Position numbers and translations under genes: made by a program | In this document: positions 698 to 25,839 of the stretch, one piece after another | Position numbering within the stretch: position 1 is the stretch's first letter | Layout: each line of letters opens with the position of its first letter | Notes under the pieces: model-generated | What the model was told of the DNA's origin: nothing | The model's input: the letters and a program-made list of their open reading frames with translations, nothing else | Database searches by the model: none | Source of the DNA: a virus | Lineage: Duplodnaviria > Heunggongvirae > Uroviricota > Caudoviricetes | Reading direction: 5' to 3' (one strand) | Virus record (IMG/VR): IMGVR_UViG_2545824717_000013 | DNA: 30,162 bases

Positions 698-1060
698 GGG
701 GCTGATTCTGGATTCGACGGGATTTGCGAAACCCAAGGTGCATGCCGAGGGGCGGTTGGCCTCGTAAAAAGCCGCAAAAAATAGTCGCAAACGACGAAAA
801 CTACGCTTTAGCAGCTTAATAACCTGCTTAGAGCCCTCTCTCCCTAGCCTCCGCTCTTAGGACGGGGATCAAGAGAGGTCAAACCCAAAAGAGATCGCGT
901 GGAAGCCCTGCCTGGGGTTGAAGCGTTAAAACTTAATCAGGCTAGTTTGTTAGTGGCGTGTCCGTCCGCAGCTGGCAAGCGAATGTAAAGACTGACTAAG
1001 CATGTAGTACCGAGGATGTAGGAATTTCGGACGCGGGTTCAACTCCCGCCAGCTCCACCA
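698..1060 (+). ncRNA. ssrA: tmRNA (SsrA), about 363 nt
   Basis: Starts GGGGCTGATTCTGGATTCGACGGG and ends GGTTCAACTCCCGCCAGCTCCACCA; contains tag-peptide reading frame region (GCAAACGACGAAAACTACGCTTTAGCAGCTTAA); position after smpB. Confidence 0.93.
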
Positions 1061-1978: not shown

Positions 1979-3079
1979 TTATTCCATTTCAAGATCATCA
2001 ATCTTCACTTCGAGTTCAATACTGGTTGTAAAACCGTTATCCGGGCTGACGGTATGTGTCAGAGTCGTAATGGTCCATTCCGCATCATCTATCGGCTGTT
2101 TAAAACCACTGACCTTCACAGGCATTTCCGTGTAGAGATCTGCCCGCCCTTCTGCCAGTTGTAGCGAAAATGACGCAACGCCGCGTTGCAGGCGTTCCCA
2201 CTGCATTTTCGCCGCTCGTTCGGCGTTGCTCCGGTTGGCATAAGTGCGATTAAGTACCAGCACGTTTTCATCCGTACCCACCAGGTAATCGCCCTGCTTC
2301 GCTTCTGGCTCTTTCTTCTGCTTCTTAGTTCTGCGCTTACGCTTCACCGTGGTGCTTTCTTTCTTCGCAGGTTCGCGGGTATGCAACCAGCTGGCAATTA
2401 CGCCCGTGTAGGCTCCGCGATCTGCCAGGGTAAATCGGTGACTGTCGCCGTCCTTGCGTGTGATAGTGATCACTGGCAGAGGTTTACCAGTGGCGCTTTT
2501 GCCCTGCCCCTGCCGGATGAATAACAGATTGCCATTTTTCACCGACGCGATGGCACCGTACTGTCGCGCCAGCCGCATCAGAAAACTGCCGTCACTCTCA
2601 TTAGTCTGGTCTATATGCTCCACGGGCTTATCCGACAGGTCTTTACCCAGTGCCATCTTCAGCTTGTGCCGCGCGGCTATTTCCTTCACCACTTCCCCGA
2701 CGGTGGTCTTATGCCACGATTTTTCACGGCGGGTATTCAGCGTTTCCCGAAAATCAGCACTTCGCGCCCGGATAGTCAGGCGGTCCGGTGCGCCAGTGTG
2801 TTCAATCTCGTCCACTGTGAATGCCCCTTTCGGGAAAAGCGGCTGCCCCTTCCAGCCCAGCGCCAGCGTAATAACCGCACCACGGCGCGGCAGCACGATT
2901 TTTCCGTCAGCGTCATCCAGCTCCAGATCAAGCTGGTCCGCTTCAAAGCCCCGGTTATCCGTCAGCGTCAAACTCATCAGGCGGTTATCCAGCACAGTGG
3001 TGATATCCCTGCCCTCAATACTGATGCTGAATGCGGGAGTTTTGTTGCCTTTGTTAAGCAGTTCAGAGCTGAAATTCAC
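1979..3079 (-). CDS. D: Phage late control/tail protein gpD
   Basis: 366-aa ORF (GTG start) at end of FETUD tail operon; recognised as P2 gpD-like. Confidence 0.85.
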   Translation of the reverse strand: MNFSSELLNKGNKTPAFSISIEGRDITTVLDNRLMSLTLTDNRGFEADQLDLELDDADGKIVLPRRGAVITLALGWKGQPLFPKGAFTVDEIEHTGAPDRLTIRARSADFRETLNTRREKSWHKTTVGEVVKEIAARHKLKMALGKDLSDKPVEHIDQTNESDGSFLMRLARQYGAIASVKNGNLLFIRQGQGKSATGKPLPVITITRKDGDSHRFTLADRGAYTGVIASWLHTREPAKKESTTVKRKRRTKKQKKEPEAKQGDYLVGTDENVLVLNRTYANRSNAERAAKMQWERLQRGVASFSLQLAEGRADLYTEMPVKVSGFKQPIDDAEWTITTLTHTVSPDNGFTTSIELEVKIDDLEME

Positions 3080-3561
3080 GACAGCAGCCCTCCCACCGTT
3101 TTACTGATATCACTTAAGGCAGACGTTGCCGTGTCCTGCAGATTATTCAGTTGCGCACTGAGATCACCGAACATATCGGACAGGGATTCATCCACTCGTT
3201 TGAGCGACAGGGTGAACTCAATCCGGCGCGGCATACCGTCGCGGAAAAACTCCGTTTTAGTCTGATTCAGTCCCTCAATCACATACATGCCGTAAATCGT
3301 GCCGCTGCCTTCAATCAGGGGCCATGCTTTCCCCTGTTCTGCCATCTGCTCCAGTGCCAGCAACGACAGCCTGCCACCTGTTATTTCCGGCATAAGAACA
3401 CCGGAAAGCGTCAGCATGTCGTTTTCCGGTCCCAGAAACTGCGTGGACGGACGTCGGTTTACCCGACTGTTTGCCGCATGTCGCCAGCTGCGTTGATACT
3501 GCAGTTCCTGATACGGAACGGTGCGCAGCATAAACACGTACAATCCCAGCACCATCATCAT
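3076..3561 (-). CDS. U: Phage tail protein gpU
   Basis: 161-aa ORF between tape measure and D, overlapping stop/start; P2 gpU-like. Confidence 0.8.
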   Translation of the reverse strand: MMMVLGLYVFMLRTVPYQELQYQRSWRHAANSRVNRRPSTQFLGPENDMLTLSGVLMPEITGGRLSLLALEQMAEQGKAWPLIEGSGTIYGMYVIEGLNQTKTEFFRDGMPRRIEFTLSLKRVDESLSDMFGDLSAQLNNLQDTATSALSDISKTVGGLLS

Positions 3562-6500
3562 GCGTCGTATCCCCCCTGATCGCTGTAGTTACTCCTGGCT
3601 TTTGCCTTCAGCCTGCGTTCACGTTCATCAAGCTGGCGTGCCACCTCCCGCGCAATATCCTGCGCACTTTGTCCTGGCTGCGTCTGAATGATGATCTGCG
3701 TCGGTGCCTCAATCCGTTGAACGAGCGGCACAGTGGCTGCGCGACTCACAATTGCTTCTCCACCTTTCGCGGGAAGTGCCAAAGGGTGCAACGGTGGAAG
3801 CTCTGCTGGCGCGGCAGCAACGCCCATCATTCCGGCAACAACGGCAGCCAGTGCAGCTGTATTTCTCCGGCTGGTCACATTTGCCGGGCCGTTAACAATT
3901 TCCGGCCCGTTTTCACCGACGATGCCAAACTGCCCGCGCGGGATATACCCGCCGCTGTCATACATCCCCGCAAAGCCATATCCCCATGATGGAAAACCAC
4001 CCGATGGCATCATCACTTTACCGTCTGCATTCACCGTCGCAGGTTTCTGACGCGTCACGCTTTCCGGCAGTTTTGCCTTTGCGGCCTCTTTACTGACAAT
4101 GCCGAGCTTCTCCAGCAACCAGGAAACGCCGGATTTCAGGGAGTCCAGCGGATGCATGACCATATTCAGCCCTTCCGCCAGTGCCTCCCCGAATCGCCGC
4201 CCCATTGCCGCTGCGCTCTGCAGTTCGGCAGAGGTCGACTTAACGGGCGTCAGCAGATCAGTAAACCAGCCCCACAGCGCCTGCACTTTGTCGCCAATCC
4301 ACTGGAACACGGGCTTAAGCGGTTCGAACGCTGCACTGATGGGACCTGCCGCCGCTTTGAATCCTTCCACCACGCCACCGAGAAATGCGGTGATGGGTTG
4401 CCAGTATTTCCAGACAACCAGCGCCACGCCCGCCAGTGCAGTAACCACAAGACCTATCGGACTGAGCAGAGCACCTAACAGACCAGATATGGCATACAGG
4501 GCAACGCGCAGCATCGCCAGTGGACCAGATGCCAGTACTCGCAGCACCGTGCCTGCGGCGGCCAGTCCACCGCGCAGTACCGCCAGAGGATTCATAAACA
4601 TCACAGCAACAGCACGTAAACCGGATAATCCAGACCGCAAAAGTGCAACCGGCGCACCTGCTACAGTTTTCAGGACATTTCCCGTCAGTGATGCCGTGCG
4701 GCGCAAAGACGACAACGGCGCAGTAAGTAAACCTGCGGCGTTGCCCGATGAAGCAAGCCCGCGTCGCAGCAGTGCCAGTGGTGCGCCAGCCAGCCAGGAC
4801 AACGCGCTGCTGGTTCGAGTTACTGCTGCCGTAACGGAAGATAACGTTTTGATACCCAACACAGAGAATCCCAGACGGATCACTGCCAGCGGCCCCAGCA
4901 CTGCAGCCAGCGCCACCGCTAAGGTGCCGAGGCCGACGGTAACCGCAGCCACAACAGCCGATGCTTTCATCAGTGTGCCTGTCAGTTCCGGGTTAGCTTC
5001 CACCCAGCGACGCAACGCCCCCGTGACGCTTTTCACCGTGTACAGAATATCCATCAGCGGCTGGCGCAGCGTTTCGCCCAGGCTGCTGAAGGTGTTCTGC
5101 GCTCCGGTTTTGACCAGCAACCACTGCGCAGAAAGTGAATCCTTGTTAATGTCGGATTCTTTCTGCATGGAGCCGAGCGCATCATTGCCCGCTGTCAGTT
5201 TTAACTGACGCTGCAGTTCCCGCAGGTTGTTTGCCAGTTTCGCCGCGTCATCGCCAAACTCTTTACCAAACAACATAGTCATGGCAGACAGGCGCTTGTC
5301 CTGCGGCAGCGCGTTTACCTTCTCCAGCACGCGCTGGATGGTTCCCATCGCATCCTTCGTCATCTGCTTTTCAATCACTTCAGGATTGAGTTTCAGCAGA
5401 TTCATCCCTTCAAAGAAACTCTTGCTTTGCATGGTGGCAATGGACAATTCACGCACCATCGCGTTTGCTGCACTGGCTGCAACCTCTGGCGCAGCGCCCA
5501 GTGTCAGGAAGGTGGAACCCAGCGCCGCCGCTTTACGATAATCCAGACGGTCAGCCACACCGCCCAGACGTTGCATCACATCAATGATGTCTGCCCCTTT
5601 CGACATGGCGTTATCATCCAGATAGTTCAGCGCATCACCGAGCTGTTCAATATTGCGGGTGGGGATTTTGTAGAGCTGGGCGATTTTCCCCAGACTTTCT
5701 GACAGTTCATCCGCTGGCAGCTCAAAGGCTGTTGCCGCCTTTGCTGCCGTACTGGCGAAGGCCAGCAGGTCACGTTTCTGATCTTCCCAGCTGTCGTCAG
5801 GGTTTGCGACGTTCATGCGCGCACCACCTTCAACCAGTGCAGCGAAGTCCACCGCACCGTTTTCCATCGGCAACTGTTCGCTGGCAGCCTTGATGGCATC
5901 CTGCATTTCATAAAAACGTGCAGTGCGGTTGCCATTATCGTCACGCAGACCATTGACCTGCTTTGCCACACCTTTCATGGCATCTTCCATGCTGGTATAG
6001 CTTTTTACTGCCGCCATCACTGGCGCACCCATTGCCAGCCCTGCAGCCGAGGTGGTGGCTCCGGCACCTGCAATACGATCACGCACCTCCAGCGAACGGG
6101 CATAACTGGCACGCGCTGCATTCATCCTGCGCTGAGCTTCCCCCAGTCGCTTCAGCCGCGCCTCCTGTTTCGAAAGTTCCTGGTTATAACGTGATGTTTC
6201 ACGGGCTAAACGGGCAGTTGCTCCCGCATCGTCTTTCGCAGAAATTCCCGCCCGGTACAGTTCAGCACGCACAAGCGCCGTCTGCTGCTGCAGCTTTTTC
6301 TGGCGTTCTTCCAGGCGCTGAACAGCCAGCCGTTGACGGCCCAGAGCAACAACCTGACGTTGCGAAGGCGGCCCCATCGCTCCCAGTTCCTGACTGAGCA
6401 AATTTGCACGCTGGCGGGCATAGTTCAGCCTGTCGCCTAATTTCTGATTTTCTGCCTGCAGCTTTCGGAAGCTGTCCAGACTGCTCCCGGCCTGATCAAG

Positions 6501-6635
6501 CTGCTTTATTGCATCGCGGGATTTTTTGACAGCAGCAGCCAGTTCTCTTGAACTGGCCTGCGCAGATCGAAATGGGCGGGTGAGCTTGTCAACCGCATTA
6601 AGAATGACCTGCAGACGCAGGTTGTTATCACTCAT
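3558..6635 (-). CDS. T: Tail tape measure protein gpT
   Basis: 1025-aa ORF, N-terminal coiled-coil-rich and central Ala/Gly/Leu-rich repeats; position after E/E'. Confidence 0.9.
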   Translation of the reverse strand: MSDNNLRLQVILNAVDKLTRPFRSAQASSRELAAAVKKSRDAIKQLDQAGSSLDSFRKLQAENQKLGDRLNYARQRANLLSQELGAMGPPSQRQVVALGRQRLAVQRLEERQKKLQQQTALVRAELYRAGISAKDDAGATARLARETSRYNQELSKQEARLKRLGEAQRRMNAARASYARSLEVRDRIAGAGATTSAAGLAMGAPVMAAVKSYTSMEDAMKGVAKQVNGLRDDNGNRTARFYEMQDAIKAASEQLPMENGAVDFAALVEGGARMNVANPDDSWEDQKRDLLAFASTAAKAATAFELPADELSESLGKIAQLYKIPTRNIEQLGDALNYLDDNAMSKGADIIDVMQRLGGVADRLDYRKAAALGSTFLTLGAAPEVAASAANAMVRELSIATMQSKSFFEGMNLLKLNPEVIEKQMTKDAMGTIQRVLEKVNALPQDKRLSAMTMLFGKEFGDDAAKLANNLRELQRQLKLTAGNDALGSMQKESDINKDSLSAQWLLVKTGAQNTFSSLGETLRQPLMDILYTVKSVTGALRRWVEANPELTGTLMKASAVVAAVTVGLGTLAVALAAVLGPLAVIRLGFSVLGIKTLSSVTAAVTRTSSALSWLAGAPLALLRRGLASSGNAAGLLTAPLSSLRRTASLTGNVLKTVAGAPVALLRSGLSGLRAVAVMFMNPLAVLRGGLAAAGTVLRVLASGPLAMLRVALYAISGLLGALLSPIGLVVTALAGVALVVWKYWQPITAFLGGVVEGFKAAAGPISAAFEPLKPVFQWIGDKVQALWGWFTDLLTPVKSTSAELQSAAAMGRRFGEALAEGLNMVMHPLDSLKSGVSWLLEKLGIVSKEAAKAKLPESVTRQKPATVNADGKVMMPSGGFPSWGYGFAGMYDSGGYIPRGQFGIVGENGPEIVNGPANVTSRRNTAALAAVVAGMMGVAAAPAELPPLHPLALPAKGGEAIVSRAATVPLVQRIEAPTQIIIQTQPGQSAQDIAREVARQLDERERRLKAKARSNYSDQGGYDA

Positions 6636-6761
6636 CGTTGGCCCCGCTTCTCTGAATCGCTTTATACCGCCATTCCAGCACTTCGGTCAGCGGCATAACG
6701 TCAGTAACGGATGGCGGCCAGTGAAAAATGGTGGCGATATCTGCCACCAGATCGTCAACCG

Positions 6762-7064
6762 TCAGGCTGTCGGTAAACCGGCAAGCACCGACTTCTTCAA
6801 CAAAAAAGTGACAACCTCAACCGACATGGCAGTGAGATCTGCCGGGTCCATCTCTGCAATTTCCTGTGCAGTCAGTGCCGGACTGGAGATGCGGGGGATC
6901 ACGGTCATCATCGCGTTTACATCCATATCCATAATGGCCTGCAGGCGTGTACCGCGCAGCGCACCGGACTGCGGTTTACGCAGCACAATTTCGGTGATTT
7001 CTGTTTTACCGCGCTTGATGGGGGTATCCAGTTGAATGGTCTTTTCAGTCTGCTTATCGCTCAT
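6762..7064 (-). CDS. E: Tail assembly chaperone gpE (E' extension by -1 frameshift to about 6633)
   Basis: 100-aa ORF between FII and T; contains T6G slippery run near its 3' end. Confidence 0.75.
   Translation of the reverse strand: MSDKQTEKTIQLDTPIKRGKTEITEIVLRKPQSGALRGTRLQAIMDMDVNAMMTVIPRISSPALTAQEIAEMDPADLTAMSVEVVTFLLKKSVLAGLPTA
6801..6808 (-). other. Slippery heptamer TTTTTTG for programmed -1 frameshift (E to E+E')
   Basis: Minus-strand CTTTTTTG within codons V-T-F-L-L-K-K of gpE; alternative frame appears to end in a TGA overlapping the ATG of T. Confidence 0.5.
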
Positions 7065-7118
7065 TTTGCTGTCCTGTCAATTGGGTTCTGGCGCGGTATC
7101 CCGCGCCGTTCAGATATA

Positions 7119-7634
7119 TCAGAGGCCGAGGGCGTTGCGGTGCGCTTCCATCAGGTCCACACCGTCCACAATTTCCACCATGTTGATAAGGTCCACTTCA
7201 TAGAGCACCTCACCATTGATGGTCAGCTTCGCGTAGCTGTTGGTACTGGTCACTTTGGTGGTGTTGCTTTCGCCCGTCTTCCACTCGCCGGAATCCACTT
7301 CTTTGTGACGTCCACGCACGACAAGCTCCACGGCCTGCACTTCCCCGGTATCGTCACGCTGAATAGAGCCGGTAAAGCGCAGCTGGATGCCATCCACCGT
7401 GGCTTTACCCATCTGTTTAAACAGCAGCAATTCAGTACCACCAATGGAAAATTCTGTATCCAGCGCACTGTCATCAAGCCCCAGATCCACATCCACCGCA
7501 CCCGGCATTCCGCCGCCGCGATACTTCTCATATTTGCGGGTAAATTTCGGCAGCGTCAGCGACTCAACGATCCCCTGCCAGTTGTTCCCGTCGTTAAACA
7601 GGTTCAGGTGTTTTAATTTGCGTGGTAAAGCCAT
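7119..7634 (-). CDS. FII: Tail tube protein gpFII
   Basis: 171-aa ORF directly downstream of sheath gene; P2 FII-like. Confidence 0.88.
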   Translation of the reverse strand: MALPRKLKHLNLFNDGNNWQGIVESLTLPKFTRKYEKYRGGGMPGAVDVDLGLDDSALDTEFSIGGTELLLFKQMGKATVDGIQLRFTGSIQRDDTGEVQAVELVVRGRHKEVDSGEWKTGESNTTKVTSTNSYAKLTINGEVLYEVDLINMVEIVDGVDLMEAHRNALGL

Positions 7635-7643
7635 GTTGTCCCC

Positions 7644-8816
7644 TTACGCGCTGACCTGGCTGGCGAAATTCACCAGGTACTGATCGGTGATGCGCTGACG
7701 CAGCATCAGGTTTTCAAGTGGCGGCACTGGCGTGTAGTCGTAGTCGATGGTGAGTTTTCCGGCTTTCAGCGTGTCTTTGTCGTTCACCGACTCATCCAGC
7801 CAGCAATCACCACCAATGAGATAGCCCTGACTGACCAGGCTGCGCATTTTGGCGCGGATACCTTCGATAATGTCGCGGGCCAGCGACGGGTTAAGCGGTT
7901 TATCCACCGCCCACATGTGTGCTTCTGCCATCGTGTCCATCAGCACCTGCGCCGTGCGGGTGTAGTTTTCGAAGGCAAAGAGCGGGTCATCACTCAGGCA
8001 GCGGGAACCCCAGAAGCGGAAACCGTCTTTACGCACAAGCGTGGTGACGTCGTTCTGGTTCAGCAGACCTGCATCGGTTGCCGGGTCCTGCAGATCCCAG
8101 AACACATCTGCAGAAATTCCGGTGACACCGTTCACGCCCACGTTGGACAGGCTTTTGTGCCATCCGGTCTGCTCGTCAATTTTGGCGCGCAGACCAAGCG
8201 CACGGGCGGTGGCATATGCCGTTGCTTCGGCTTTCAGCACCGTGTCCCAGCCAGTAAAGTCAGGCCAGATCAGCATCCCTTCGCGCTGGCTGAAGTTTTC
8301 GCGGTAAGTGATCGCCTCCTGCACTGTCTTGCAGCCATACGCTGACAGGTAAGCAAATCCACGCAGGCTTTGCGCCACGCTCAGCAACTCAGTAGCTACC
8401 GCCTTGGTGTCGTGGCCTGGCACGCCGAGAATGCGCGGTTTAACGCCGAGCTGTGACTGGGCAGATAACAGGGCTTTCATACCTGTTTTTTTACCTTCAG
8501 CAGTCACTGCGCCGATGATATTGGTCGTGGTTTCGTCTTCCGTTTCACCCTGCGGCACACGCACAACAATGGTCACGGGTTTTGCCTGGTCAGCGATGGC
8601 ATCCAGCGAACGGGCCAGAGTACCTGACTCACCCGCTTTACCGCTGGCAGTCAGCACATCAGTGATCAGCACGGGTTTATTAAGAGGAAACATTTTTGCA
8701 TCGGCATCATCGCCCGTGCAGACCATACCCACGATGGCGGTGCTCACCGTGGTAATAGATCGGGTGCCTTCGTTGACTTCAACAACGCGCACCCCGTGGT
8801 GGTAATCCTGAGCCAT
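7644..8816 (-). CDS. FI: Tail sheath protein gpFI
   Basis: 390-aa ORF, P2 FI-like, first gene of FETUD operon. Confidence 0.9.
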
Positions 8817-8892
8817 AGTGGCGAACCTCCTGATTGGATTAGGCTTCGCCCTATGTTGAAGTGATTGTGCCTGACAAACAGCTAAGCGCAGT

Positions 8893-8910
8893 TGTGTCGT
8901 TATTCACACA
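8893..8910. promoter_or_regulatory. TGT-N12-ACA element, candidate Ogr-dependent late promoter upstream of FI
   Basis: TGTgtcgttattcacACA located about 80-95 bp upstream of the FI start; matches the dyad described for P2 late promoters. Confidence 0.4.
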
Positions 8911-8958
8911 AAATAACGGTATTTGTCTGCTTGCAGGGATAATCAACATAATGCTGAT

Positions 8959-9531
8959 TCAGGGGGATTCATTGATCTTATTTGCCGGAAATTTTCTATA
9001 AATGGTAGAAACGCCTACATCAAAAATCAGTGCAATACGCTGTCTTGATTCTCCGGCCTCGAGTAAACGCCCAATCTGTGCCCACTGTTCGGTGGTCAAC
9101 TTAGGACGGCGTCCACCTACTCTGCCTTTGGCACGAGCTGCAGCCAGCCCTGCCCTGGTACGTTCAACTATCAGTTCGCGTTCCATTTCAGCCAGGGCAC
9201 CCATGACATGAAAAAAGAAACGGCCCATTGGGGTACTGGTATCAATACTGTCAGTCAGGCTTCTGAAATTCACACCACGCTGGCGCAACTCTTCTATCAG
9301 CGTAACAAGATGCCGCATACTGCGCCCCAACCTGTCCAGCTTCCAGACAACCAGCGTGTCTCCTGCCGATAGTGTCCTGAGTAGTTTTTTCAGCCCCGGT
9401 CTGTCGGACTTAGTGCCACTGATTTTGTCCTCAAAAATCCGCTCACATCCCGCGCAGTTCAGTGCATTACGTTGCAAATCGGTGTTCTGGTCATTTGTTG
9501 ACACGCGTACATAGCCAATAAGCATGATCAT
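8959..9531 (-). CDS. Hin/Gin/Pin-family serine DNA invertase
   Basis: 190 aa; MLIGYVRVSTNDQNTDLQRNAL... catalytic Ser motif and C-terminal HTH; closely resembles e14 Pin from memory. Confidence 0.9.
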   Translation of the reverse strand: MIMLIGYVRVSTNDQNTDLQRNALNCAGCERIFEDKISGTKSDRPGLKKLLRTLSAGDTLVVWKLDRLGRSMRHLVTLIEELRQRGVNFRSLTDSIDTSTPMGRFFFHVMGALAEMERELIVERTRAGLAAARAKGRVGGRRPKLTTEQWAQIGRLLEAGESRQRIALIFDVGVSTIYRKFPANKINESP

Positions 9532-9552
9532 CCCCCTGAATAAAAACCGGAG

Positions 9553-10047
9553 ATGATGCCAGTTAGCTGTTACCTCTGCATTTTCTTAAACGTTGGTTTG
9601 GGAGAAGCGGCAAAACGGAATGTGGGCAACGGGGAAAACCAAATCCCTGATATGTCTTTCTGGACGGTTACTGGTGGCAATGGAAATTTTGTGATTCGTC
9701 AACCTGACGGGCTAATCACTCAGATGGTTACTGTAAGTATAAGCGGTCCAGTGGCGATGAATGGAATGACTGATAATGCTTATGCCATTACAGGTTCTAA
9801 TAAGTCTTATATTGCCACAGCCACATTGCCCTTTGTATTTCCTAATAAGGTGCTGGGCGTTATCCCTCTGGTATCAACAACAGCTTATGGCGGTGTATCC
9901 AGTAATATTACAGGTTCATACGCGACGGCGGTTTGTTCTTTTGCCGCTGTCCGGGGGAATAATACGATTGTATTCAAAGTCGACAAACCACTGAATGCAG
10001 CCTTTCCTTCAGATACCAGCGTCTCAGCGTTAATCATTGGACGGTAA
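9553..10047 (+). CDS. Alternative tail-fibre C-terminal variable segment (Sv'-like), promoterless in this orientation
   Basis: 164-aa ORF starting just outside the gix-like site and followed by a tfa gene; mirror arrangement of the minus-strand pair. Confidence 0.55.
   Translation: MMPVSCYLCIFLNVGLGEAAKRNVGNGENQIPDMSFWTVTGGNGNFVIRQPDGLITQMVTVSISGPVAMNGMTDNAYAITGSNKSYIATATLPFVFPNKVLGVIPLVSTTAYGGVSSNITGSYATAVCSFAAVRGNNTIVFKVDKPLNAAFPSDTSVSALIIGR
9581..9606. other. gix/hix-like 26-bp invertase crossover site (left end of invertible segment)
   Basis: TTTTCTTAAACG-TT-GGTTTGGGAGAA: imperfect dyad resembling Gin/Hin/Cin recombination sites. Confidence 0.5.
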
Positions 10048-10049
10048 GA

Positions 10050-10493
10050 ATGAACTCAGTATTCTTTTCACCCGGAAGTAAAAGTTTTTATCTACAAGAA
10101 TTGTTTCCAGAATATGAGGATGCGGGAACGCTTCCAGATGATGTTATTGAAATTACCCGAGAAACATATGAGCAATTTCTTGGGCTGCATCCAGAAGGGA
10201 AAGAAATTGGCGCTGACAGTTCAGGACGGCCAATATGGATTAATTCCCCACCGCCTTCAAAAGAGGATGAGGTGTTGATGGCTGAAATGAAAAAAATATC
10301 TTTGGTTTCAGAAGCCAATACCTACATCAACACCCATCAGTGGCCTGGCAAAGCTGCTATTGGTCGTCTGAAAGGTAACGAGCTGGAGCAATATAATTTA
10401 TGGCTGGATTATCTGGACGCACTGGAACTGGTTGATACCTCCAGTGCTCCAGATATTGAATGGCCTACGCCTCCGGCAGTTCAGGCCAGATGA
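10050..10493 (+). CDS. Tail fibre assembly protein (alternative copy)
   Basis: 147 aa; conserved C-terminal ...TSSAPDIEWPTPP motif shared with the convergent tfa (TSTAPNVIWPELP). Confidence 0.75.
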   Translation: MNSVFFSPGSKSFYLQELFPEYEDAGTLPDDVIEITRETYEQFLGLHPEGKEIGADSSGRPIWINSPPPSKEDEVLMAEMKKISLVSEANTYINTHQWPGKAAIGRLKGNELEQYNLWLDYLDALELVDTSSAPDIEWPTPPAVQAR

Positions 10494-11067
10494 CATTCGG
10501 CGCGGTGCTGGTATCTATTGCCGTCACCGCGTCAATGTAATCCAGCACAGCGTTAAGCCGGGTTGTTTCTGCCTGCGTCAGTTTCCGTCCGGCCTGTAAT
10601 TTCAGCTGAATCAGACTAATGGAAGCCATTGCAGCATCAATCAGTGACTGGCGCTGTGCTTCTGCCGCGTCTACTGCGGCGCTATGCTGTGCCTCAGTAT
10701 CCGTCACCCATTTCTCACCATCCCATTTATCGTATGGCGTTAATGGGGCGATAGTGGTTGTATTATTAGGGTAATCACCCGGAGCTGTGATTTCTTTTGA
10801 TTCTCCTGTTTCGGTGCTAAAGACGATTTCACCGCGATGGTCTGGCACATATTCCCATGAGTTAAAATCTGCAGAACGGCAGATTGCATAACCAGCTTTG
10901 TATGCGCCTGGAGCATCTAAACAGGAACATGCCGGAATGCCGACACCAACGGCAAGATATTCAGTTGATATGGAAATATATTCCCGTGTTTCACCATCAT
11001 AATTATAGACAGTAATATCCCCCGCCTTCGTGGCAATAAACTCGCTATTTAATACAGCGCTATCCAT
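10465..11067 (-). CDS. Tail fibre assembly protein
   Basis: 200 aa, immediately downstream of tail-fibre C-terminal segment; 3' ends of the two tfa genes overlap convergently. Confidence 0.8.
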   Translation of the reverse strand: MDSAVLNSEFIATKAGDITVYNYDGETREYISISTEYLAVGVGIPACSCLDAPGAYKAGYAICRSADFNSWEYVPDHRGEIVFSTETGESKEITAPGDYPNNTTTIAPLTPYDKWDGEKWVTDTEAQHSAAVDAAEAQRQSLIDAAMASISLIQLKLQAGRKLTQAETTRLNAVLDYIDAVTAIDTSTAPNVIWPELPEA

Positions 11068-11537
11068 TATGCAGCCCTCACAATGTAGTTAAATGCGATG
11101 TTGCGTGGACGGACACCGAAATAAGAAGTAACACCATTCATTGTCAAATTTCCAGAGCCAAAAGCGGTAAAACCAGAACCAGCATTAACTGCCGAATCCG
11201 CGTTTCTGACAAAGTTTTTGGGAGGTGAACCGGAGACACCAGCCGAAATATCATCAGCGTTACCGCCATTGCCGTGGTGGTTAGTTATCTTTGTTTCCGC
11301 CTGCGCCGTCAACAAACCTCGTCCAGAGTCAACCCCGCGCCCGTCATCCCAGCCGCGAATAAACTCACCACGTAAATCAGGCAATTTATTTGTCGGATAA
11401 GCCTTTGCCAGTTCCGGGTATTCTTCAGCAGAAAAAGCTGCACCATTGCATTTCAGCCAGCCTGTTGGCGGAGTGGCTGAAGGCCACGGAACAGGGACAC
11501 CAACAGGTAATGCAGAGCCTTCTCCCAAAGCCGTCAT
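11067..11537 (-). pseudogene. Tail fibre (gpH-like) C-terminal receptor-binding segment lacking the constant N-terminal part
   Basis: 156 aa with tail-collar-like motif PVGVPVPWPSATPPTGWLKCNGAAFSAEEYPELAKAYP; only about 21 bp separate its first codon from the terminase gene on the other strand. Confidence 0.75.
11519..11533. other. Partial gix-like half-site (right end of invertible segment) abutting a deletion junction
   Basis: CTTCTCCCAAAG is the inverted counterpart of the outer half of the left site; the expected second half is not recognisable. Confidence 0.35.
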
Positions 11538-11558
11538 TCAAGGCTGTAGGTTTGTGCC

Positions 11559-13325
11559 ATGAACACCACACTGACACCCGCAGATCTCGATCCCCGTCGG
11601 CAGGCCATGCTGCTGTACTTTCAGGGATACCGCGTAGCCCGCATTGCTGAAATGCTGGGCGAGAAAGTTGCAACCGTTCACAGCTGGAAAAAACGCGACA
11701 AGTGGGGTGACTATGGGCCGCTGGATCAGATGCAGCTCACCACCGCCGCACGCTACTGCCAGCTCATTATGAAGGAGCACAAAGAAGGGAAAGATTTCAA
11801 AGAAATTGACCTGCTGGCGCGCCAGTCGGAGCGCCACGCGCGCATCGGCAAGTTTAACAATGGCGGTAACGAAGCCGACTTAAACCCTAACGTCGCCAAC
11901 CGCAACAAAGGCCCGCGCCGTCAGCCGGAAAAGAATGTTTTCACCGATGAGCAGATTGAGAAGCTGGAAGAAATCTTCCATTCCTCCATGTTCAACTACC
12001 AGCGCCACTGGTGGGAAGCCGGAAAAACCAACCGCATCCGCAACCTGCTGAAGTCTCGCCAGATCGGCGCGACCTTCTATTTTGCGCGTGAAGCCCTGAT
12101 TGACGCCCTGCTTACCGGACGTAACCAGATTTTCCTTTCTGCCAGTAAGGCTCAGGCCCACGTCTTTAAACAATACATCATCGACTTCGCCAAAGAAGTC
12201 GAGGTGGAGCTAAAAGGCGATCCGATGGTGCTTCCTAACGGAGCCACGCTTTACTTCCTCGGCACCAATGCCCGCACGGCCCAGAGTTATCACGGCAACC
12301 TTTATCTGGATGAATATTTCTGGATACCGAAATTCCAGGAGCTGCGCAAAGTGGCTTCCGGGATGGCTATTCACAAGAAATGGCGACAAACCTATTTTTC
12401 CACGCCATCCAGCCTGACCCACAGTGCTTATCCGTTCTGGTCCGGTGCGCTGTTCAACCGTGGACGCAACAAAGCTGACAAGGTGGACATCGATCTGTCC
12501 CACAGCAATCTGGCCCCCGGCCTGCTGTGCGCAGACGGGCAATACCGCCAGATAGTCACCGTGGAAGATGCGGTGCGCGGCGGCTGTAACCTGTTCGACC
12601 TCGACCAGCTGCGCATGGAGTACAGCCCGGACGAATACCAGAACCTGCTGATGTGCGAGTTTGTGGACGATCTCGCGTCCGTGTTCCCGCTCAGCGAACT
12701 GCAGGCGTGCATGGTGGACAGTTGGGAAGTCTGGACCGACTTTCATGCACTGGCCCTGCGCCCGTTTGGCTGGCGAGAGGTGTGGATCGGTTATGACCCG
12801 GCAAAAGGTACGCAGAACGGTGACAGTGCCGGGTGCGTGGTGGTGGCTCCGCCAGCCGTGCCGGGCGGTAAGTTCCGTATTCTTGAGCGTCACCAGTGGC
12901 GCGGGATGGACTTCCGCGCCCAGGCGGACGCCATCAAAAAACTGACCGAACAGTACAACGTGACATACATCGGCATCGACTCGACAGGTGTCGGTCACGG
13001 GGTTTATGAGAACGTGAAAGCGTTCTTTCCTGCCGTCCGGGAGTTTGTCTACAACCCCAACGTTAAAAACGCCCTGGTACTCAAGGCCTACGACATTATT
13101 AGCCACCGCCGCCTGGAGTTTGACGCCGGGCACACCGACATAGCGCAGTCCTTTATGGCAATCCGTCGCGCCACCACTGCCAGCGGCAACCGCCCGACCT
13201 ATGAAGCCAGCCGCAGCGAAGAAGCCAGCCACGCCGATCTGGCCTGGGCAACAATGCACGCACTGTTTAATGAACCGCTGCAGGGCGAGTCCGCCAATAC
13301 CAGCAATATTGTGGAGATTTTTTGA
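11559..13325 (+). CDS. P: Terminase large (ATPase) subunit gpP
   Basis: 588 aa, P2 gpP-like, followed by portal gene with overlapping stop/start. Confidence 0.9.
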   Translation: MNTTLTPADLDPRRQAMLLYFQGYRVARIAEMLGEKVATVHSWKKRDKWGDYGPLDQMQLTTAARYCQLIMKEHKEGKDFKEIDLLARQSERHARIGKFNNGGNEADLNPNVANRNKGPRRQPEKNVFTDEQIEKLEEIFHSSMFNYQRHWWEAGKTNRIRNLLKSRQIGATFYFAREALIDALLTGRNQIFLSASKAQAHVFKQYIIDFAKEVEVELKGDPMVLPNGATLYFLGTNARTAQSYHGNLYLDEYFWIPKFQELRKVASGMAIHKKWRQTYFSTPSSLTHSAYPFWSGALFNRGRNKADKVDIDLSHSNLAPGLLCADGQYRQIVTVEDAVRGGCNLFDLDQLRMEYSPDEYQNLLMCEFVDDLASVFPLSELQACMVDSWEVWTDFHALALRPFGWREVWIGYDPAKGTQNGDSAGCVVVAPPAVPGGKFRILERHQWRGMDFRAQADAIKKLTEQYNVTYIGIDSTGVGHGVYENVKAFFPAVREFVYNPNVKNALVLKAYDIISHRRLEFDAGHTDIAQSFMAIRRATTASGNRPTYEASRSEEASHADLAWATMHALFNEPLQGESANTSNIVEIF

Positions 13326-14359
13326 TGGGAAAGAGTAAGAAAAACCGCGCTGCGTCGACGAAACAGATCCAGCATAAAAGCCAGACTTCAGCCGAAGCAT
13401 TCAGCTTCGGTGATCCCGTTCCTGTTCTGGACCGCCGCGAACTGCTGGACTATGTGGAATGCGTACAGATGGATCGTTGGTATGAGCCGCCTGTGAGTTT
13501 CGACGGACTGGCGCGAACCTTCCGCGCCGCCGTGCATCACAGCTCACCGATTGCAGTGAAGTGCAACATTCTGACCAGCACCTACATCCCTCACCCGCTG
13601 CTCAGCCAGCAGGCTTTTTCGCGTTTTGTACAGGACTATCTGGTTTTTGGTAACGCCTACCTGGAGAAACGCACGAACCGCTTCGGTGAAGTTATCGCCC
13701 TTGAGCCTGCACTGGCAAAATACACCCGACGCGGGTTAGACCTGGATACCTACTGGTTTGTGCAATACGGTATGACTACGCAGTTGTATCAGTTCACGAA
13801 AGGCAACATTTTTCATCTGATGGAACCGGACATCAACCAGGAGATCTACGGTCTGCCCGGTTATCTTTCTGCCATTCCGTCAGCTCTGCTCAACGAGTCC
13901 GCCACGCTGTTCCGCCGCAAGTATTACATTAACGGCAGTCATGCAGGCTTCATCATGTACATGACCGATGCTGCGCAGAACCAGGAGGATGTGAACAACC
14001 TCCGCAATGCGATGAAAAGCGCCAAAGGTCCTGGTAACTTCCGTAACCTGTTTATGTACTCGCCTAACGGTAAAAAGGACGGGCTTCAGATTATCCCGTT
14101 GTCAGAAGTGGCGGCGAAGGATGAGTTCCTGAATATCAAGAACGTGAGCCGGGACGACATGATGGCGGCGCATCGTGTGCCGCCACAAATGATGGGGATA
14201 ATGCCTAATAATGTCGGGGGGGTTGGGGATGTGGAGAAAGCCAGTCGCGTATTTGTACGTAATGAATTAACGCCCTTGCAAAAAAGGCTACAAGAGCTGA
14301 ACGACTGGCTGGGCGAAGAAGTGATTAAATTTACGCCCTATATTCTTTCAGAAGAATAA
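13322..14359 (+). CDS. Q: Portal (capsid) protein gpQ
   Basis: 345 aa, P2 gpQ-like, transcribed toward the cos region. Confidence 0.9.
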   Translation: MMGKSKKNRAASTKQIQHKSQTSAEAFSFGDPVPVLDRRELLDYVECVQMDRWYEPPVSFDGLARTFRAAVHHSSPIAVKCNILTSTYIPHPLLSQQAFSRFVQDYLVFGNAYLEKRTNRFGEVIALEPALAKYTRRGLDLDTYWFVQYGMTTQLYQFTKGNIFHLMEPDINQEIYGLPGYLSAIPSALLNESATLFRRKYYINGSHAGFIMYMTDAAQNQEDVNNLRNAMKSAKGPGNFRNLFMYSPNGKKDGLQIIPLSEVAAKDEFLNIKNVSRDDMMAAHRVPPQMMGIMPNNVGGVGDVEKASRVFVRNELTPLQKRLQELNDWLGEEVIKFTPYILSEE

Positions 14360-14367
14360 TTCCGAAC

Positions 14368-15066
14368 TTATTTGTTTCTTCTTTGTTCACGCCTTGTCTT
14401 GGCTTCGATAAGGCGTTGAGGTTCAGTGTAAAGCCGTTCTAAAAAAAGATAGGTAAAATCTTCAAGATCCTCAGCAGCAGCTTTATCCAAAATACCTTCA
14501 TGCGCTCCATCATTTCCGTCATCTTTAACGCATTCAGCTAGTTCCCTTAAAGCTTCAGGCAGTAGATGATTATCAAATAACCACTCCATTCTTAACCCTA
14601 GGCTTCTCCTTATTTTTTGCGCAGGCCCTTGCTCCCCATCAGGAAGAAGTCCTTTTGTGGCATAATCAAGGCAAAGCCTAAACATGGTTGCTGCTGCATT
14701 ATAACAACCTATAGCCAAACATTTCGCCCCTTCCTCATATGCACTATTGATATGCTCAGGTAAGAACTCTGGTGGCTCCTCTACTGCTAAGTCTGCTGGT
14801 GATATAGGCCTAACAACCTCTGCAACTTCCTTTAAGCCGAATATTCCACTTTCCCAATTATAGCCATCTAAAGTTTTATTTTTCGTTAAAGGTCTGCAAA
14901 GAAACATTGTCGTTTTATGACACTCTCGGCAAACACAATAGACCTCGTACTCGTATGTTTTACCCCCGCCCAATGCATTGTAAACCCTAGTGCAATTCAG
15001 CCCATTAACATCAAACGCTATTTTTTGTGATCCACATCGTGGACAGTCATCCACTAACATAACCAT
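14368..15066 (-). CDS. Zinc-ribbon plus DUF4145/HEPN-like domain protein (candidate abortive-infection/defence gene)
   Basis: 232 aa in AT-rich insert; N-terminal CPRCG...CRECH Cys pairs; C-terminal AATMFRLCLDYATKGLL...GNDGAHEG resembles DUF4145 as I recall it. Confidence 0.55.
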   Translation of the reverse strand: MVMLVDDCPRCGSQKIAFDVNGLNCTRVYNALGGGKTYEYEVYCVCRECHKTTMFLCRPLTKNKTLDGYNWESGIFGLKEVAEVVRPISPADLAVEEPPEFLPEHINSAYEEGAKCLAIGCYNAAATMFRLCLDYATKGLLPDGEQGPAQKIRRSLGLRMEWLFDNHLLPEALRELAECVKDDGNDGAHEGILDKAAAEDLEDFTYLFLERLYTEPQRLIEAKTRREQRRNK

Positions 15067-15355: not shown

Positions 15356-15967
15356 CTACGTAACCACAGTTAATGTGTGCATCCTGTCTCGAATTGCATC
15401 ACACGTCTCATCAAAAAGCTTGGTAATGGTTGTACGGTTCAACTCTGCCTCTTTCCAATAATTTTGCCCGTCAAAATCTGGATCGCTATGCTGAAACGAT
15501 ATTGACTCTGAAAGGCATTCCTTCCGGAAACGGTCCAAGATTATATAAACCTCTGGTGAGATGAACGGTTTGTTAGACTCAACACTTGTAACAAAAGTAT
15601 TAAATGTATCGAAAAAAACTTTCAACCTTCTAAGTTTTCTCTCTTCAAATGGTTCGTTGAGGTCGACATGATCCAGCGCAGGCCTAAGCTTAAGCACGCT
15701 TTCTCTTATTTCAAACATCGAATTCCAAATGAGACTATATGCTGATAACTCCTTATCAAAATACGCTTTCGTTACATAAACAGAATTGTCTAACTTAGCC
15801 TTTATTCTTTCATTAGTTGCACTCAGTTGTGATTGAAATTCAGCAATATCTTTGTTTAGCCGCGACTTATATCTTTCTAAATAAACTTTCCCGATCCAAA
15901 CAAATATGCCAGATGCAACAAAAGACACCCCACCCAACGAAGCCAGAACTTTAAAGACTAAATCCAT
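15356..15967 (-). CDS. Membrane-anchored protein of unknown function (candidate defence/moron gene in the P2 tin/old position)
   Basis: 203 aa, AT-rich; hydrophobic N-terminal helix FKVLASLGGVSFVASGIFVWIG followed by a charged, helix-rich soluble region. Confidence 0.55.
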   Translation of the reverse strand: MDLVFKVLASLGGVSFVASGIFVWIGKVYLERYKSRLNKDIAEFQSQLSATNERIKAKLDNSVYVTKAYFDKELSAYSLIWNSMFEIRESVLKLRPALDHVDLNEPFEERKLRRLKVFFDTFNTFVTSVESNKPFISPEVYIILDRFRKECLSESISFQHSDPDFDGQNYWKEAELNRTTITKLFDETCDAIRDRMHTLTVVT

Positions 15968-16432: not shown

Positions 16433-17683
16433 TCAGTTCAACGCCGTTTGCCGACCCTTTACGGATGCGGATACCGTCGCATTTGTCCAGGTTGGGTTTG
16501 GTCTGCCGTTATTGAGCGTGGAATGGAAACGTGACGGACAGGTAATGGTGTAGAAAACGGCGCAATCACCACGCATTTCCGCGATAAGCTCCAGACCTTT
16601 AACACAGGCCATCATCTCATTGCGGCGGTGCGCCGGGTTGCTGCTGCTGGCGTTTACCACGTCTTCCATATCCAGCGTGTCGCCCTCTTCGTTCACCAGT
16701 TCATGAGAACGGAAAAACTCCAGTGACTTGCGGCGCTGCTCACGTTTATGCATCACGGCTTCATAGCTGACATAGGGAGATGCTTTTTTGCTGACCAGGC
16801 AGACAGCACGCAACTGCTCTTCCCGCCATTCGCAACGCATCTTCCATAATTTCCGATACCACCAGTCGGCACACAACATACGCGCCAGCGAACCCGGAAT
16901 GAGTTCATAGGGCACGGGTTTACGGCGGTTTCTTTTCCGACGGAGTTGCTCAAACGCAGGCGGAATAACATCCAGACGCAGGGTTTCCGCTGCCACCTTT
17001 TCCCATGTTTTGCGGATTTCTTCTGGCTTAACGTCATCGGTGGCATACAAATCACCACAAGCGGCATCAAGGCACATGCTCATATGCGCAGCGACAAGGG
17101 TAGACAGGCGCTTCACCTGATCCTGACTCATTTCAGGCAGGATAAGCAGGCCGTCCAGCCCTTCATGGCTTGCCATAAAACGAAAAGATGCAGATAGCTG
17201 GCTGTCGCGTACATGCTCCAGTCGTTCCAGACATGGCTTAATCGTCTCACGTAAATAGCGGGAATAAGCCTTTGGCCTGCCTAGGCTGCTAAAGTATTCA
17301 ATACGTTGCATCAGCGGCTTGCTGATATGGGAAGGCTGGGCGTTGACGTCCGCCAGAATGACCATATCCGGATTAAAACGCTGCTGCTCATGCGCCAGCT
17401 TTGCCCGGCTAATGAGCTTATCCTGCTCCATTTCGCGCTGGACAGGATCACGTGATTCATTAAAAAAATAACGCTCCCAGACCTGATCACTCAGTGCCTC
17501 GCGGCGCAGTTGTTCCTGCTCGTTATCGGCAGCGTACAGAGTGATCAGGTTTGAAAGCGCAGAAACCGGCGCAACTTCCGCCGGGTCCAGATAAGGGTTA
17601 ATGGCCTTTTTCGGGCTGTTCCATGAGAACGCTGCGGCAGCCTCGTTAAAGCCGCAGCAGTTGTTCATATCGGCATGACTCAT
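16433..17683 (-). pseudogene. A: Replication initiation endonuclease gpA, N-terminal fragment (3'-truncated)
   Basis: 416 aa ending shortly after a rolling-circle motif-1-like FYTITCP; P2 gpA is about 760 aa and the catalytic Tyr region is not present downstream. Confidence 0.7.
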
Positions 17684-21362: not shown

Positions 21363-22376
21363 ATGACCATCAGAAAACAGCCGAACGGAAAATGGTTGTG
21401 CGAGTGTTACCCGAACGGGCGTGACGGCAAGCGCGTGCGCAAGCAATTTGCGACAAAGGGCGAGGCTGTAGCATTCGAAAACTTCACCATGGATCAAGTG
21501 AACAAAAAGCCGTGGCTGGGTGAAAAGGAAGATCGGCGGCGTTTGTCAGAATTGATTGAGCAGTGGCACTCCCTTTACGGCCAGACGCTCGCAGACCCCA
21601 AGCGCCTGATGGCGAAACTGAATATTATCTGCAATGGCCTAGGCGATCCCGTCGCCTCTGAATTAACCGCCGGTGACTTTACGAAATATCGTGAAGCACG
21701 GTTGAAAGGAGAGGTACGTAACGAAGAAGGCGCGCTAATGTCGCCAGTAAAACCACGCACGGTAAACCTTGAACAGCGTAACTTATCATCCGTTTTTGGC
21801 ACCCTTAAGAAGTTGGGCCACTGGTCAGCGCCTAACCCACTCGCCGGGCTACCGACATTCAAAATCGCAGAGGGTGAATTGGCATTCTTAGCCTTGGACG
21901 AAATTAAACGCCTGCTTGATGCCTGCGCTGATTCTCAAAGCCCTAGCCTATTGATGATCGCAAAGGTATGCCTAGCTACCGGCGCGCGGTGGAGTGAAGC
22001 CGAAAACCTTCAAGGCCATCAGTTATCAAAATATCGGATCACCTATACCAAAACCAAAGGCAAGAAAAACCGAACTGTACCGATATCTCAGGAGCTATAC
22101 GACGAACTACCCAAAAACAGGGGGAAGCTGTTCACGCCATGCAGAAAAGCTTTTGAACGAGCAGTGAAGCGGGCCAATATAGACTTACCAGCGGGACAAT
22201 GCACTCATGTGCTACGCCATACTTTCGCCAGTCATTTTATGATGAACGGCGGAAACATACTTGTTTTGAGAGATATTTTGGGTCATTCTGATATCAAGAT
22301 GACCATGGTATATTCACACTTTTCACCAGATCATCTTGAAGACGCAGTTTATAAAAACCCACTCAACTTTTTATAA
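21363..22376 (+). CDS. int: P2-family tyrosine integrase
   Basis: 337 aa with C-terminal catalytic motifs (ATGARWSEA...HVLRHTFASHFMMNGG...LGHSDIKMTMVYSHF). Confidence 0.9.
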   Translation: MTIRKQPNGKWLCECYPNGRDGKRVRKQFATKGEAVAFENFTMDQVNKKPWLGEKEDRRRLSELIEQWHSLYGQTLADPKRLMAKLNIICNGLGDPVASELTAGDFTKYREARLKGEVRNEEGALMSPVKPRTVNLEQRNLSSVFGTLKKLGHWSAPNPLAGLPTFKIAEGELAFLALDEIKRLLDACADSQSPSLLMIAKVCLATGARWSEAENLQGHQLSKYRITYTKTKGKKNRTVPISQELYDELPKNRGKLFTPCRKAFERAVKRANIDLPAGQCTHVLRHTFASHFMMNGGNILVLRDILGHSDIKMTMVYSHFSPDHLEDAVYKNPLNFL

Positions 22377-24128: not shown

Positions 24129-24221
24129 ATATCCCCACATCGAAAAGTATTGATATTTTTTTATTTTTTCATCACTTCCAGTATAAATTATCGTAGGTAG
24201 ATATTCTATTGCATTAGTATA

Positions 24222-24244
24222 AGTGGCGGCAAAATGGCGACAGA
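24222..24244 (+). repeat. 23-bp direct repeat AGTGGCGGCAAAATGGCGACAGA (copy 2), candidate integrase arm-type site
   Basis: Identical to 1107..1129. Confidence 0.4.
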
Positions 24245-24336
24245 AGAGTAAAAATGCATAACACTTGCTAATACGCCAAAACACTAAATCAATGATAATA
24301 TTGATAAATTATTGCATCTCAACCATTAATAATAGT

Positions 24337-24450: not shown

Positions 24451-24547
24451 CGTCTATTGTAGTCTAGTGAGAATTGCTGAGAACTACGAGTTATGGCACC
24501 CTGAATGGGACCCACGAAGATGGGTCCTAAAATCGAGGGTCCCAAAC

Positions 24548-25777: not shown

Positions 25778-25839
25778 CTCTCCCATGATGGATTAACTAT
25801 CTTGATTTAGTTAAAGAATTAATAATCACACCATTAACC

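Follow-up and report, generated by a model that had tools for sequence, protein, structure and literature searches.

The stretch of DNA analysed here (30,162 nucleotides; IMG/VR record IMGVR_UViG_2545824717_000013; referred to below as the window) contains a P2/186-like (Peduovirinae-type) prophage remnant at the ssrA gene of Escherichia coli. The remnant is doubly deleted, plainly defective and of a known, ordinary kind. This report concerns its invertase gene, pin, the tail-fibre cassette beside it at 8959-11537, and the inversions that link this locus to a second prophage. An earlier note, made from the sequence alone, had described the region as an orphaned invertible tail-fibre cassette of the Mu G-segment kind. 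A Pin-type invertase next to two convergent sets, each of a fibre variable part and an assembly gene, is indeed present at these positions, well above chance. The features of the region, some of which overlap, are as follows.

8959-9525, minus strand: pin, serine DNA invertase, 188 residues (190 residues from an in-frame ATG at 9531)
9356-9525, minus strand: presumed Fis-dependent recombinational enhancer, the first ~170 nt of pin, placed by homology
9553-10047, plus strand: silent fibre variable part Sv', with a weak Gp53-like_C match
9581-9606: intact invertase-proximal crossover site, 26 bp; outer half TTTTCTTAAACG, core TT, inner half GGTTTGGGAGAA
10050-10493, plus strand: tail fibre assembly gene paired with Sv', 147 residues (Caudo_TAP, 7.5e-28)
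10465-11067, minus strand: tfaE-like tail fibre assembly gene, 200 residues (Caudo_TAP, 8e-33; called tfaE in RefSeq relatives)
11067-11537, minus strand: junction frame, a StfE-like variable part, 156 residues (Collar domain, 8.9e-16)
11520-11529: remnant of the constant-part-proximal crossover site, 10 of 26 bp, TTCTCCCAAA
11530-11558: residual terminase/scaffold intergenic DNA, 29 bp left upstream of gene P

When the pin product was subjected to a domain search, it matched the Resolvase domain (E 2.3e-53) and HTH_7 (E 1.5e-15, residues 140-183). It aligned with the structure of Mu Gin (3UJ3; E 1e-92) over 184 residues, and also matched the DNA-binding domain of Hin (1HCR). Compared with PinE of e14, 157 of its 188 residues are identical (83.5%). 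Its N-terminus, MLIGYVRVS..., aligned residue for residue with those of Gin and PinE, and the catalytic Ser9 is present. Both hallmarks of the Gin/Pin/Cin/Hin family, namely a catalytic serine-recombinase domain with Ser9/10 and a C-terminal helix-turn-helix, were found. The allele is very common, with the exact 188-residue sequence appearing in 9140 blocks of the collection. The contexts examined for it (ten out of ten) were P2-like prophages with full fibre, baseplate and tail genes, where Pin adjoins fibre segments in both orientations and with various cassettes. Judged by its sequence, the pin gene is intact and is a wild-type allele.

In gin, hin and cin, the enhancer lies in the 5' part of the invertase gene. 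The first 210 nt of pin are ~89% identical to those of e14 pinE, and the enhancer is presumably intact; a loose scan of this region for the Fis pattern gave two matches and no convincing pair. A consensus scan for promoters and terminators found no more promoters than in shuffled controls, and none above chance for pin. A perfect 12-nt inverted repeat, ATTCAGGGGGAT at 8957-8968 and ATCCCCCTGAAT at 9530-9541, brackets the invertase frame. It was considered as an element and rejected: the repeat is not conserved in the relative L001, and ~0.3 such pairs are expected per 3 kb. It is probably due to chance.

The left crossover site is the sole perfect match to the 12-nt half-site within the window. 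In the inner half and the core dinucleotide it does not differ from the e14 site (L017), while its outer half is off by one base; the e14 site repeats have been published (PMC12529663). This site is the breakpoint of a segment inversion in the relative L011, and also of the 27.4-kb inversion described below (L031, L033, L036, L039, L041). At the right end, TTCTCCCAAA is followed by unrelated DNA, where relatives read CC AA GGTATGCGAGAA. The complete right site of the relatives, TTCTCCCAAACC AA GGTATGCGAGAA, lies within a fibre gene of ~500 residues, and intact relatives keep both crossover sites. A second family-type site is absent from the window: its right core is CG, not AA, and the outer half agrees with the half-site consensus at 3 of 12 positions. 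The sites had been described as intact at the left and partial at the right, in agreement with the 26 bp at 9581-9606 and the 10 bp at 11520-11529 found here.

The Sv' frame begins outside the segment and runs across the left site; in the relative L011 it is fused to the constant part, giving a 500-residue fibre. On the other strand, the junction frame starts at a fortuitous ATG supplied by the terminase/scaffold intergenic DNA, and the sequence upstream of the site in this frame is identical to e14 stfE. The segment thus has the two variable ends of a fibre switch, convergent and each with its own assembly gene, but the constant 5' part of the fibre gene, which should lie outside it, is deleted: the match to the fibre gene of L001 (504 residues) ends at 11529. 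The earlier reading that no fibre could be made in either orientation was correct, and the cassette is orphaned. Its likeness to the Mu G segment holds for the architecture and not for the lineage, as the context is P2/186-like and the sites are of the e14 Pin type.

The deletions and the local segment

Over 2800-11529 the window runs colinear with the prophage of E. coli LFB1-1-1R, an intact relative, at 97% identity. Past this point the prophage reads on into a fibre gene of 504 residues, whereas the window, at 11527-11529, changes over to the DNA found 30 bp upstream of the terminase gene. Terminase-side homology starts at 11527 and fibre-side homology ends at 11529, so that the junction is a 3-bp AAA overlap. 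The sequences around it are as follows.

Intact fibre gene: ...GAGCC TTCTCCCAAA CCAAGGTATGCG...
Window: ...GAGCC TTCTCCCAAA GCCGTCATTCAAGG...
Intact P/O intergenic region: ...GGCGGGGAAA GCCGTCATTCAAGG...

The missing stretch measures 10,141 bp in LFB1-1-1R. With it went the constant part of H, the genes I, J, W, V, S and R, the lysis genes, and X, L, M, N and O. Most of the P/O intergenic region was also lost, including a TGT-N12-ACA element (compared with L002 and L051); elements of this type are carried by P2 late promoters. The terminase gene P itself is intact, yet it lacks its upstream promoter region.

The endpoint of the deletion, placed by parsimony in the AAA overlap, lies 2-5 bp from the normal cleavage point of the invertase. 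If the endpoint could have fallen anywhere in the ~1-kb constant part, pure coincidence would account for this with a chance of ~1%, and coincidence is unlikely. It is possible that aberrant cleavage followed by end-joining started the 10.1-kb deletion; Pin may in this manner have made its own deletion, at the site that was lost. A canonical invertase-made deletion, between the site and a quasi-site upstream of P, was also considered and rejected. The aligned parental intergenic core is CG and not AA, the would-be half-site upstream of P matches at 3 of 12 positions, and the junction has G at position 11, where a core crossover would leave C.

A second deletion, of 1,664 bp compared with strain E47 (L003), has its junction at 16472/16473. 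It removes the 3' half of gene A (416 of ~804 residues are left), a small hypothetical gene and part of a dinI-like gene.

Other losses were seen in related loci. One sister isolate (L038; GCA_044914165.1) is without 8767-11721 and so has lost pin, the entire segment and the P gene's 5' end, and another (L008/L032; ENA ERZ21883486) is without 2277-8913, which holds the tail genes. An unrelated P2-like remnant (L014; Logan SRR15732052) carries a different deletion, in which a 58-residue stump of gene I is joined to a truncated terminase. It seems that such prophages decay repeatedly by losing the block from head to baseplate genes.

The clone to which the window belongs was located only through the exact junction protein, using an exact-protein index of 15 billion proteins. 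It is encoded by at least 37 contigs, listed in 50 collection blocks; these are all from E. coli and from one clone. Between the window and the clone loci that were fetched there are 0-4 substitutions per 12 kb, and GCA_000357645.1 is identical to the window. The exact deletion junction, searched with the segment in either orientation, gave 0 matches each in the GTDB species-representative genomes and the JGI metagenome contigs, and it was absent from the complete RefSeq E. coli genomes.

All the fetched clone loci have the local segment in one orientation. A flipped local junction would read ...CCGCTTCTCCCAAAGCCGTCATTC... / ...TTTTGCCGCTTCTCCCAAAGCCGTCATTC... The corresponding flipped junction protein (MTALGEAAKRNV...) was absent from the collection of 15 billion proteins, where an exact match misses variants with a single substitution and proteins that were not called. 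Because the outer half-site and the AA core have been lost, the local 1.9-kb segment is apparently locked. In the intact relative L011, by comparison, the sequence as far as the left site is 98.9% identical to the window, and 9593-11529 is present in the opposite orientation at 99.5% identity, with the other variable end on the constant part.

The earlier note had left it between a frozen segment and an invertase still acting in cis, or in trans on the sites of other prophages. Freezing apparently applies to the local segment, and trans action finds indirect support at the site of a neighbouring prophage, as described below. A single orientation joined to an inactivated invertase had been named there as evidence against a switch; the local orientation is single, but the invertase carries no inactivating changes and retains Ser9.

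The 27.4-kb inversion and the second prophage

A second P2-like prophage lies near rplS. Its native arrangement by rplS was seen in strain KE40, in L045 and L048, and in L050; its crossover site (P2) is also present in the assembly whose match to the window is 100% (L050 and L007). In other members of the clone, namely L006/L031 (with eight similar places) and L009/L033, the same deletion junction is found in an inverted arrangement. These members are 100% identical to the window rightward from the core of the left site, and ~80% identical immediately leftward of it. The leftward sequence holds an 80-residue invertase stump, a different P2-type tail module (sheath, 392 residues; tube, 172; tape measure, 814), ogr, and rplS-trmD-rimM.

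The reciprocal product was found on the same contig, JAAPTX010000024.1 (L036). Here the block of the window from smpB-ssrA-D through the sheath gene to pin is present at 99.99% identity up to 9607, and is joined at the site to a different segment, followed by the fibre and baseplate genes of the second prophage. Both recombinant junctions are thus on JAAPTX010000024.1, and both parental junctions are on ABQNHE010000021.1 (L052 with L035). The site centres are 27,405 bp apart on parental and recombinant contigs alike. The junctions are listed below, where seg is the segment of the remnant, seg2 that of the second prophage and pin' its invertase stump; P1 and P2 denote the sites as they stand in the window-type (parental) arrangement, and J1 and J2 the recombinant sites.

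P1: seg ...gccgc, then TTCTCCCAAACC AA CGTTTAAGAAAA, then pin
P2: seg2 ...agcacc, then TTCTCCCAAACC AA CCTTTTAGAAAA, then pin'
J1: seg2, then ... AA CGTTTAAGAAAA, then pin
J2: seg, then ... AA CCTTTTAGAAAA, then pin'

Around the core, P1 and P2 are identical over 16 bp only (cTTCTCCCAAACCAAc). The exchange is therefore reciprocal and precise, and is placed at the crossover point of the invertase. The inverted interval consists of the following parts.

First part: the invertase stump and the tail genes of the second prophage
Middle: rplS-trmD-rimM-rpsP, ffh, ypjD, yfjD, grpE, nadK, recN, bamE, rnfH, ratA, smpB and ssrA
Last part: the tail genes of the remnant and pin

When the right arms were compared, the parental-type L029 and the inverted-type L033 were found to share the same four variants, while the inverted L031 differs; the parental-type L030 and L032 have fewer variants. 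With haplotypes shared and divided across the two states in this way, any tree needs at least two changes of state, and the exchange appears to be recurrent within the clone, with two events or more. The 24 contigs that were read for orientation comprised ~13 parental and ~10 inverted. Among the carrier assemblies, GCA_000357645.1 and GCA_036975035.1 are parental, and GCA_049987465.1 and GCA_000166535.3 are inverted. Haplotypes and near-equal counts fit an active switch, the variants being few and the isolates separate. The surviving pin-proximal site appears to be still in use. An invertase-mediated inversion between two prophages was not found in the searchable literature, which covers older work poorly.

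It may be noted that several draft contigs (L010/L034, L043 and L044) end at about 9602-9613 of the window, that is, at the left crossover site. The assembler may have met two continuations there, from mixed orientations in the cultures.

The 1.8-kb segment of the second prophage has two good sites of its own. It is flipped in L052, giving a 354-residue fibre, and unflipped in L045, giving a 318-residue fibre, with flanks that are 99.99% identical. The T/C difference found at position 4 of the inner half-site stays with the segment when it turns, so the exchange can be located at the site. The invertase stump, pin', is 80 residues long and lacks the C-terminal half of the catalytic domain as well as the DNA-binding domain. 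Since the segment flips though its own invertase is truncated, some invertase acts in trans. The Pin of the remnant, being the nearest intact candidate, is likely to be this enzyme.

Trans action of this kind has parallels. In Salmonella, a study of two invertases reportedly found that Fin, the invertase of the Fels-2 prophage, acts on hix sites. In E. coli, PinQ of the Qin prophage acts in trans on the e14 segment (PMC12529663). The earlier note had suggested looking for cross-reaction with other invertible segments in the genome; recombination of the left site with a neighbour is borne out by the genomes compared here, and Pin would be its catalyst.

Two further observations concern the second prophage. 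A 278-residue pentapeptide-repeat protein is encoded on the opposite strand between its genes S and V (L036/L045/L052); this gene is probably cargo. Its fibre cassette (genes of 150, 197 and 144 residues) also occurs near trpA-ompW in L046 and L049, where it adjoins a 182-residue invertase in an unrelated myovirus-like prophage. There the inner half-sites are the same and the outer ones differ, which looks like an exchange of cassettes between phage types at the crossover sites.

Explanations for the inversions and the known systems

We consider it probable that the locus is a decayed fibre switch, in which the local segment is locked while pin and the pin-proximal site remain active and bring about the 27.4-kb flip with the second prophage. 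Originally, an e14-type Pin would have flipped the 1.94-kb segment, joining one or other variable end, and the assembly gene that belongs to it, to the constant part of H. A single 10.1-kb deletion, from 30 bp upstream of P into the H-proximal site, would then have removed the constant part along with the head, lysis and baseplate genes. The local segment would have been locked by this event, with pin and the pin-proximal site surviving. The latter would recombine with the pin-proximal site of the mirror-oriented P2-like prophage at rplS, inverting 27.4 kb, and the remnant's Pin would supply the trans activity that flips the 1.8-kb segment of that prophage. Pin is the most likely supplier because only a stump of 80 residues is left of the other invertase. 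The sequences directly show the layout of the locus, the 10.1-kb deletion, the reciprocal junctions, the two orientations of both the 27.4-kb and the 1.8-kb segment in near-identical genomes, and that the flipped local junction is missing from the collection. We infer from comparison of the genomes that the catalyst is this Pin and not some other invertase, and that switching is ongoing.

Several points weigh against this explanation. All the evidence comes from one clone of draft or chromosome-level assemblies, and every orientation is the consensus assembly of a different isolate. The conclusion that at least two events occurred depends on four or five variant positions, and recombination between isolates could mimic it. 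Moreover, other Pin-family invertases may exist elsewhere in the carrier genomes.

Another view is that the locus is a wholly inert fossil, in which pin is unexpressed or inactive, a single old inversion took place and the second segment was flipped by some other invertase. Such a fossil would be in keeping with orientation data taken from separate assemblies rather than one culture, with the small number of variants behind the haplotype argument, and with a consensus scan that gave no above-chance promoter for pin. We nevertheless regard it as unlikely. A dead gene sits poorly with a Pin identical to the common allele of P2-like prophages that keep their fibre and tail genes. Also against it, one four-variant haplotype is found with the parental as well as the inverted arrangement, the contig numbers per state are roughly equal, and the flanks differ by 0-4 substitutions per 12 kb.

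The cassette could also have been retained for a host function, for example, if the junction protein or the pin-proximal frame blocks phage adsorption. A block of this kind is reported for StfE2 of e14: the chimeric Stf proteins of the orphan e14 segment inhibit adsorption of T2 (PMC12529663). The cassette of the window is of the e14 stfE/tfaE type. The junction frame has gained an ATG and is intact in most of the fetched clone loci, but the clone is too young for such conservation to be informative. PADLOC, run on the two orphan fibre reading frames, gave 0 defence-family matches, and the loss of pin and the whole segment in L038 argues against strong selection. Retention for a host function is on balance quite improbable.

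For the 27.4-kb inversion itself, RecA-dependent homologous recombination between the prophages, without the invertase, has to be weighed. According to Iguchi 2006, as cited in PMC6379469, prophage pairs are substrates for large homologous inversions in E. coli. The two prophages here have related tail and invertase genes in common. The exchange, however, took place inside a 16-bp identity on the AA core, with sequence that is ~80% identical on one side and unrelated cassettes on the other; it coincides with the exact crossover point of the invertase, and is apparently recurrent. The usual minimum for efficient RecA pairing is roughly 20-30 bp of identity, and 16 bp fall below this. Homologous recombination is therefore a very unlikely cause.

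That the local 1.9-kb segment still inverts on rare occasions, with the damaged right site serving as a quasi-site, is the slimmest prospect: ten bp of the inner half-site are left, and Cin and Gin are able to use poorly matching quasi-sites, but only 3 of the 12 outer-half positions agree with the consensus, CG stands in place of the AA core, the flipped junction protein is not in the collection, and the fetched clone loci are all in one orientation.

Among the known systems, the closest to the decayed switch is Pin with the P segment of e14 (K-12 pinE, stfE-tfaE / tfaP-stfP). It has the same inner half-site and core, TTCTCCCAAACC AA, and the same stfE/tfaE-type cassette, identical up to the site, with an invertase that is 83.5% identical. 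Like the remnant, e14 is a defective prophage whose segment no longer serves a virion. In contrast to the remnant, whose fibre-proximal site is destroyed, e14 has kept both sites and still inverts; it is a lambdoid element at icd, whereas the remnant is of the P2/186-like myovirus type and lies at ssrA. Gin with the G segment of Mu and Cin with the C segment of P1 have the same order of parts (constant part, variable part with assembly gene, inverted second set, and the invertase outside) and belong to the Fis-dependent family. They differ in half-site sequence, and here the backbone is P2-like and the constant part is missing.

The intact P2-like prophages (the EPEC E2348/69 loci; L001, L011, L018-L027) have an identical or nearly identical invertase, tail module and cassettes, in both orientations, and loci of this kind have been shown to flip in culture (PMC4272514). 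These prophages are complete, whereas the remnant lacks 10.1 kb, and 1.66 kb of the replication gene region. The trans systems of PinQ and Fin, where the invertase of one prophage acts on the sites of another element, resemble what is proposed here. The difference is that trans action is deduced here from genome comparison and includes a 27.4-kb exchange between prophages, not just a small cassette. In the prophage-pair inversions of E. coli O157 (Iguchi 2006), two inverted prophages likewise bound the inverted interval; those inversions arise by homologous recombination, while the present one uses a 16-bp core at the invertase site and is reciprocal, precise and apparently recurrent.

By itself, the cassette is a textbook element in decay and of little interest. 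What the decayed switch suggests is that a prophage remnant may lose the purpose of its switch and yet keep a recombinase and one site that act on neighbouring elements. If the inversion is driven by Pin and ongoing, a small serine invertase would be acting naturally across tens of kilobases and reorienting essential genes, and isolates of the clone would differ in genome structure in a way overlooked by short-read typing. The locus is also a simple natural system for studying enhancer-dependent invertases with distant sites, the upkeep of a switch across prophages, and the effect of inversion on prophage induction. The mechanism would be conventional; its scale, the essential genes involved and the swapping of modules would be unusual.

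A bolder version, which we put forward tentatively and hold to be doubtful, is that the remnant's Pin drives a reversible, programmed 27.4-kb chromosomal flip between the pin-proximal sites of the two mirror-oriented P2-like prophages. If true, each flip would reverse the rpsP-rimM-trmD-rplS operon, ffh, grpE, ssrA and smpB (essential genes) relative to replication. It would swap the tail-gene modules and the working invertase between the prophages, and would part the attachment ends of the second prophage, toggling its excision. The orphaned switch would in that case be a device for chromosomal phase variation and for grounding a prophage.

Other features of the window

The host was identified as E. 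coli, the smpB-ssrA flank being 99.8% identical to many genomes in which an ogr-type gene also follows ssrA. The order and the Pfam families of the genes are those of P2: ogr, D, U, T, E, FII, FI / P, Q / A / CI-CII / int. Annotated P2-like prophages are colinear with the window, which, however, lacks genes O through I together with the constant part of H and has only a truncated A. The features outside the cassette are as follows.

1-483: smpB, at the start of the window
698-1060: ssrA (tmRNA gene)
1979-3079, minus strand: D, tail gene
3076-3561, minus strand: U, tail gene
3558-6635, minus strand: tape measure gene, 1025 residues
6762-7064, minus strand: tail assembly gene E
7119-7634, minus strand: tube gene
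7644-8816, minus strand: sheath gene
11559-13325, plus strand: terminase large subunit gene P, intact (Terminase_5, Terminase_6N and Terminase_6C domains)
13322-14359, plus strand: portal gene Q
16433-17683: truncated replication gene A, beyond portal gene Q
Also beyond gene Q: genes for a Dam-type methylase and for CII-like and CI repressors
21363-22376: integrase gene, at the end of the prophage

Two reading frames follow the portal gene, a position known as a variable hotspot for cargo or defence genes in P2-like phages. The first (14368-15066, minus strand) encodes a DUF4145 protein with a weak match to the defence family PD-T7-4 (E 1.2e-6); the second (15356-15967, minus strand) encodes a 203-residue protein without a family. 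Just beyond the integrase end, at 22386-24284 on the minus strand, a 632-residue protein matches the dCTP deaminase defence family of PADLOC (E 2.5e-140), and is labelled 'anti-phage dCTP deaminase' in one relative. A second island lies past the prophage, at 24467-29395. Its genes encode a P4-type integrase of 436 residues, a large serine recombinase of 518 residues and, one after the other, two ParB/RepB-like proteins.

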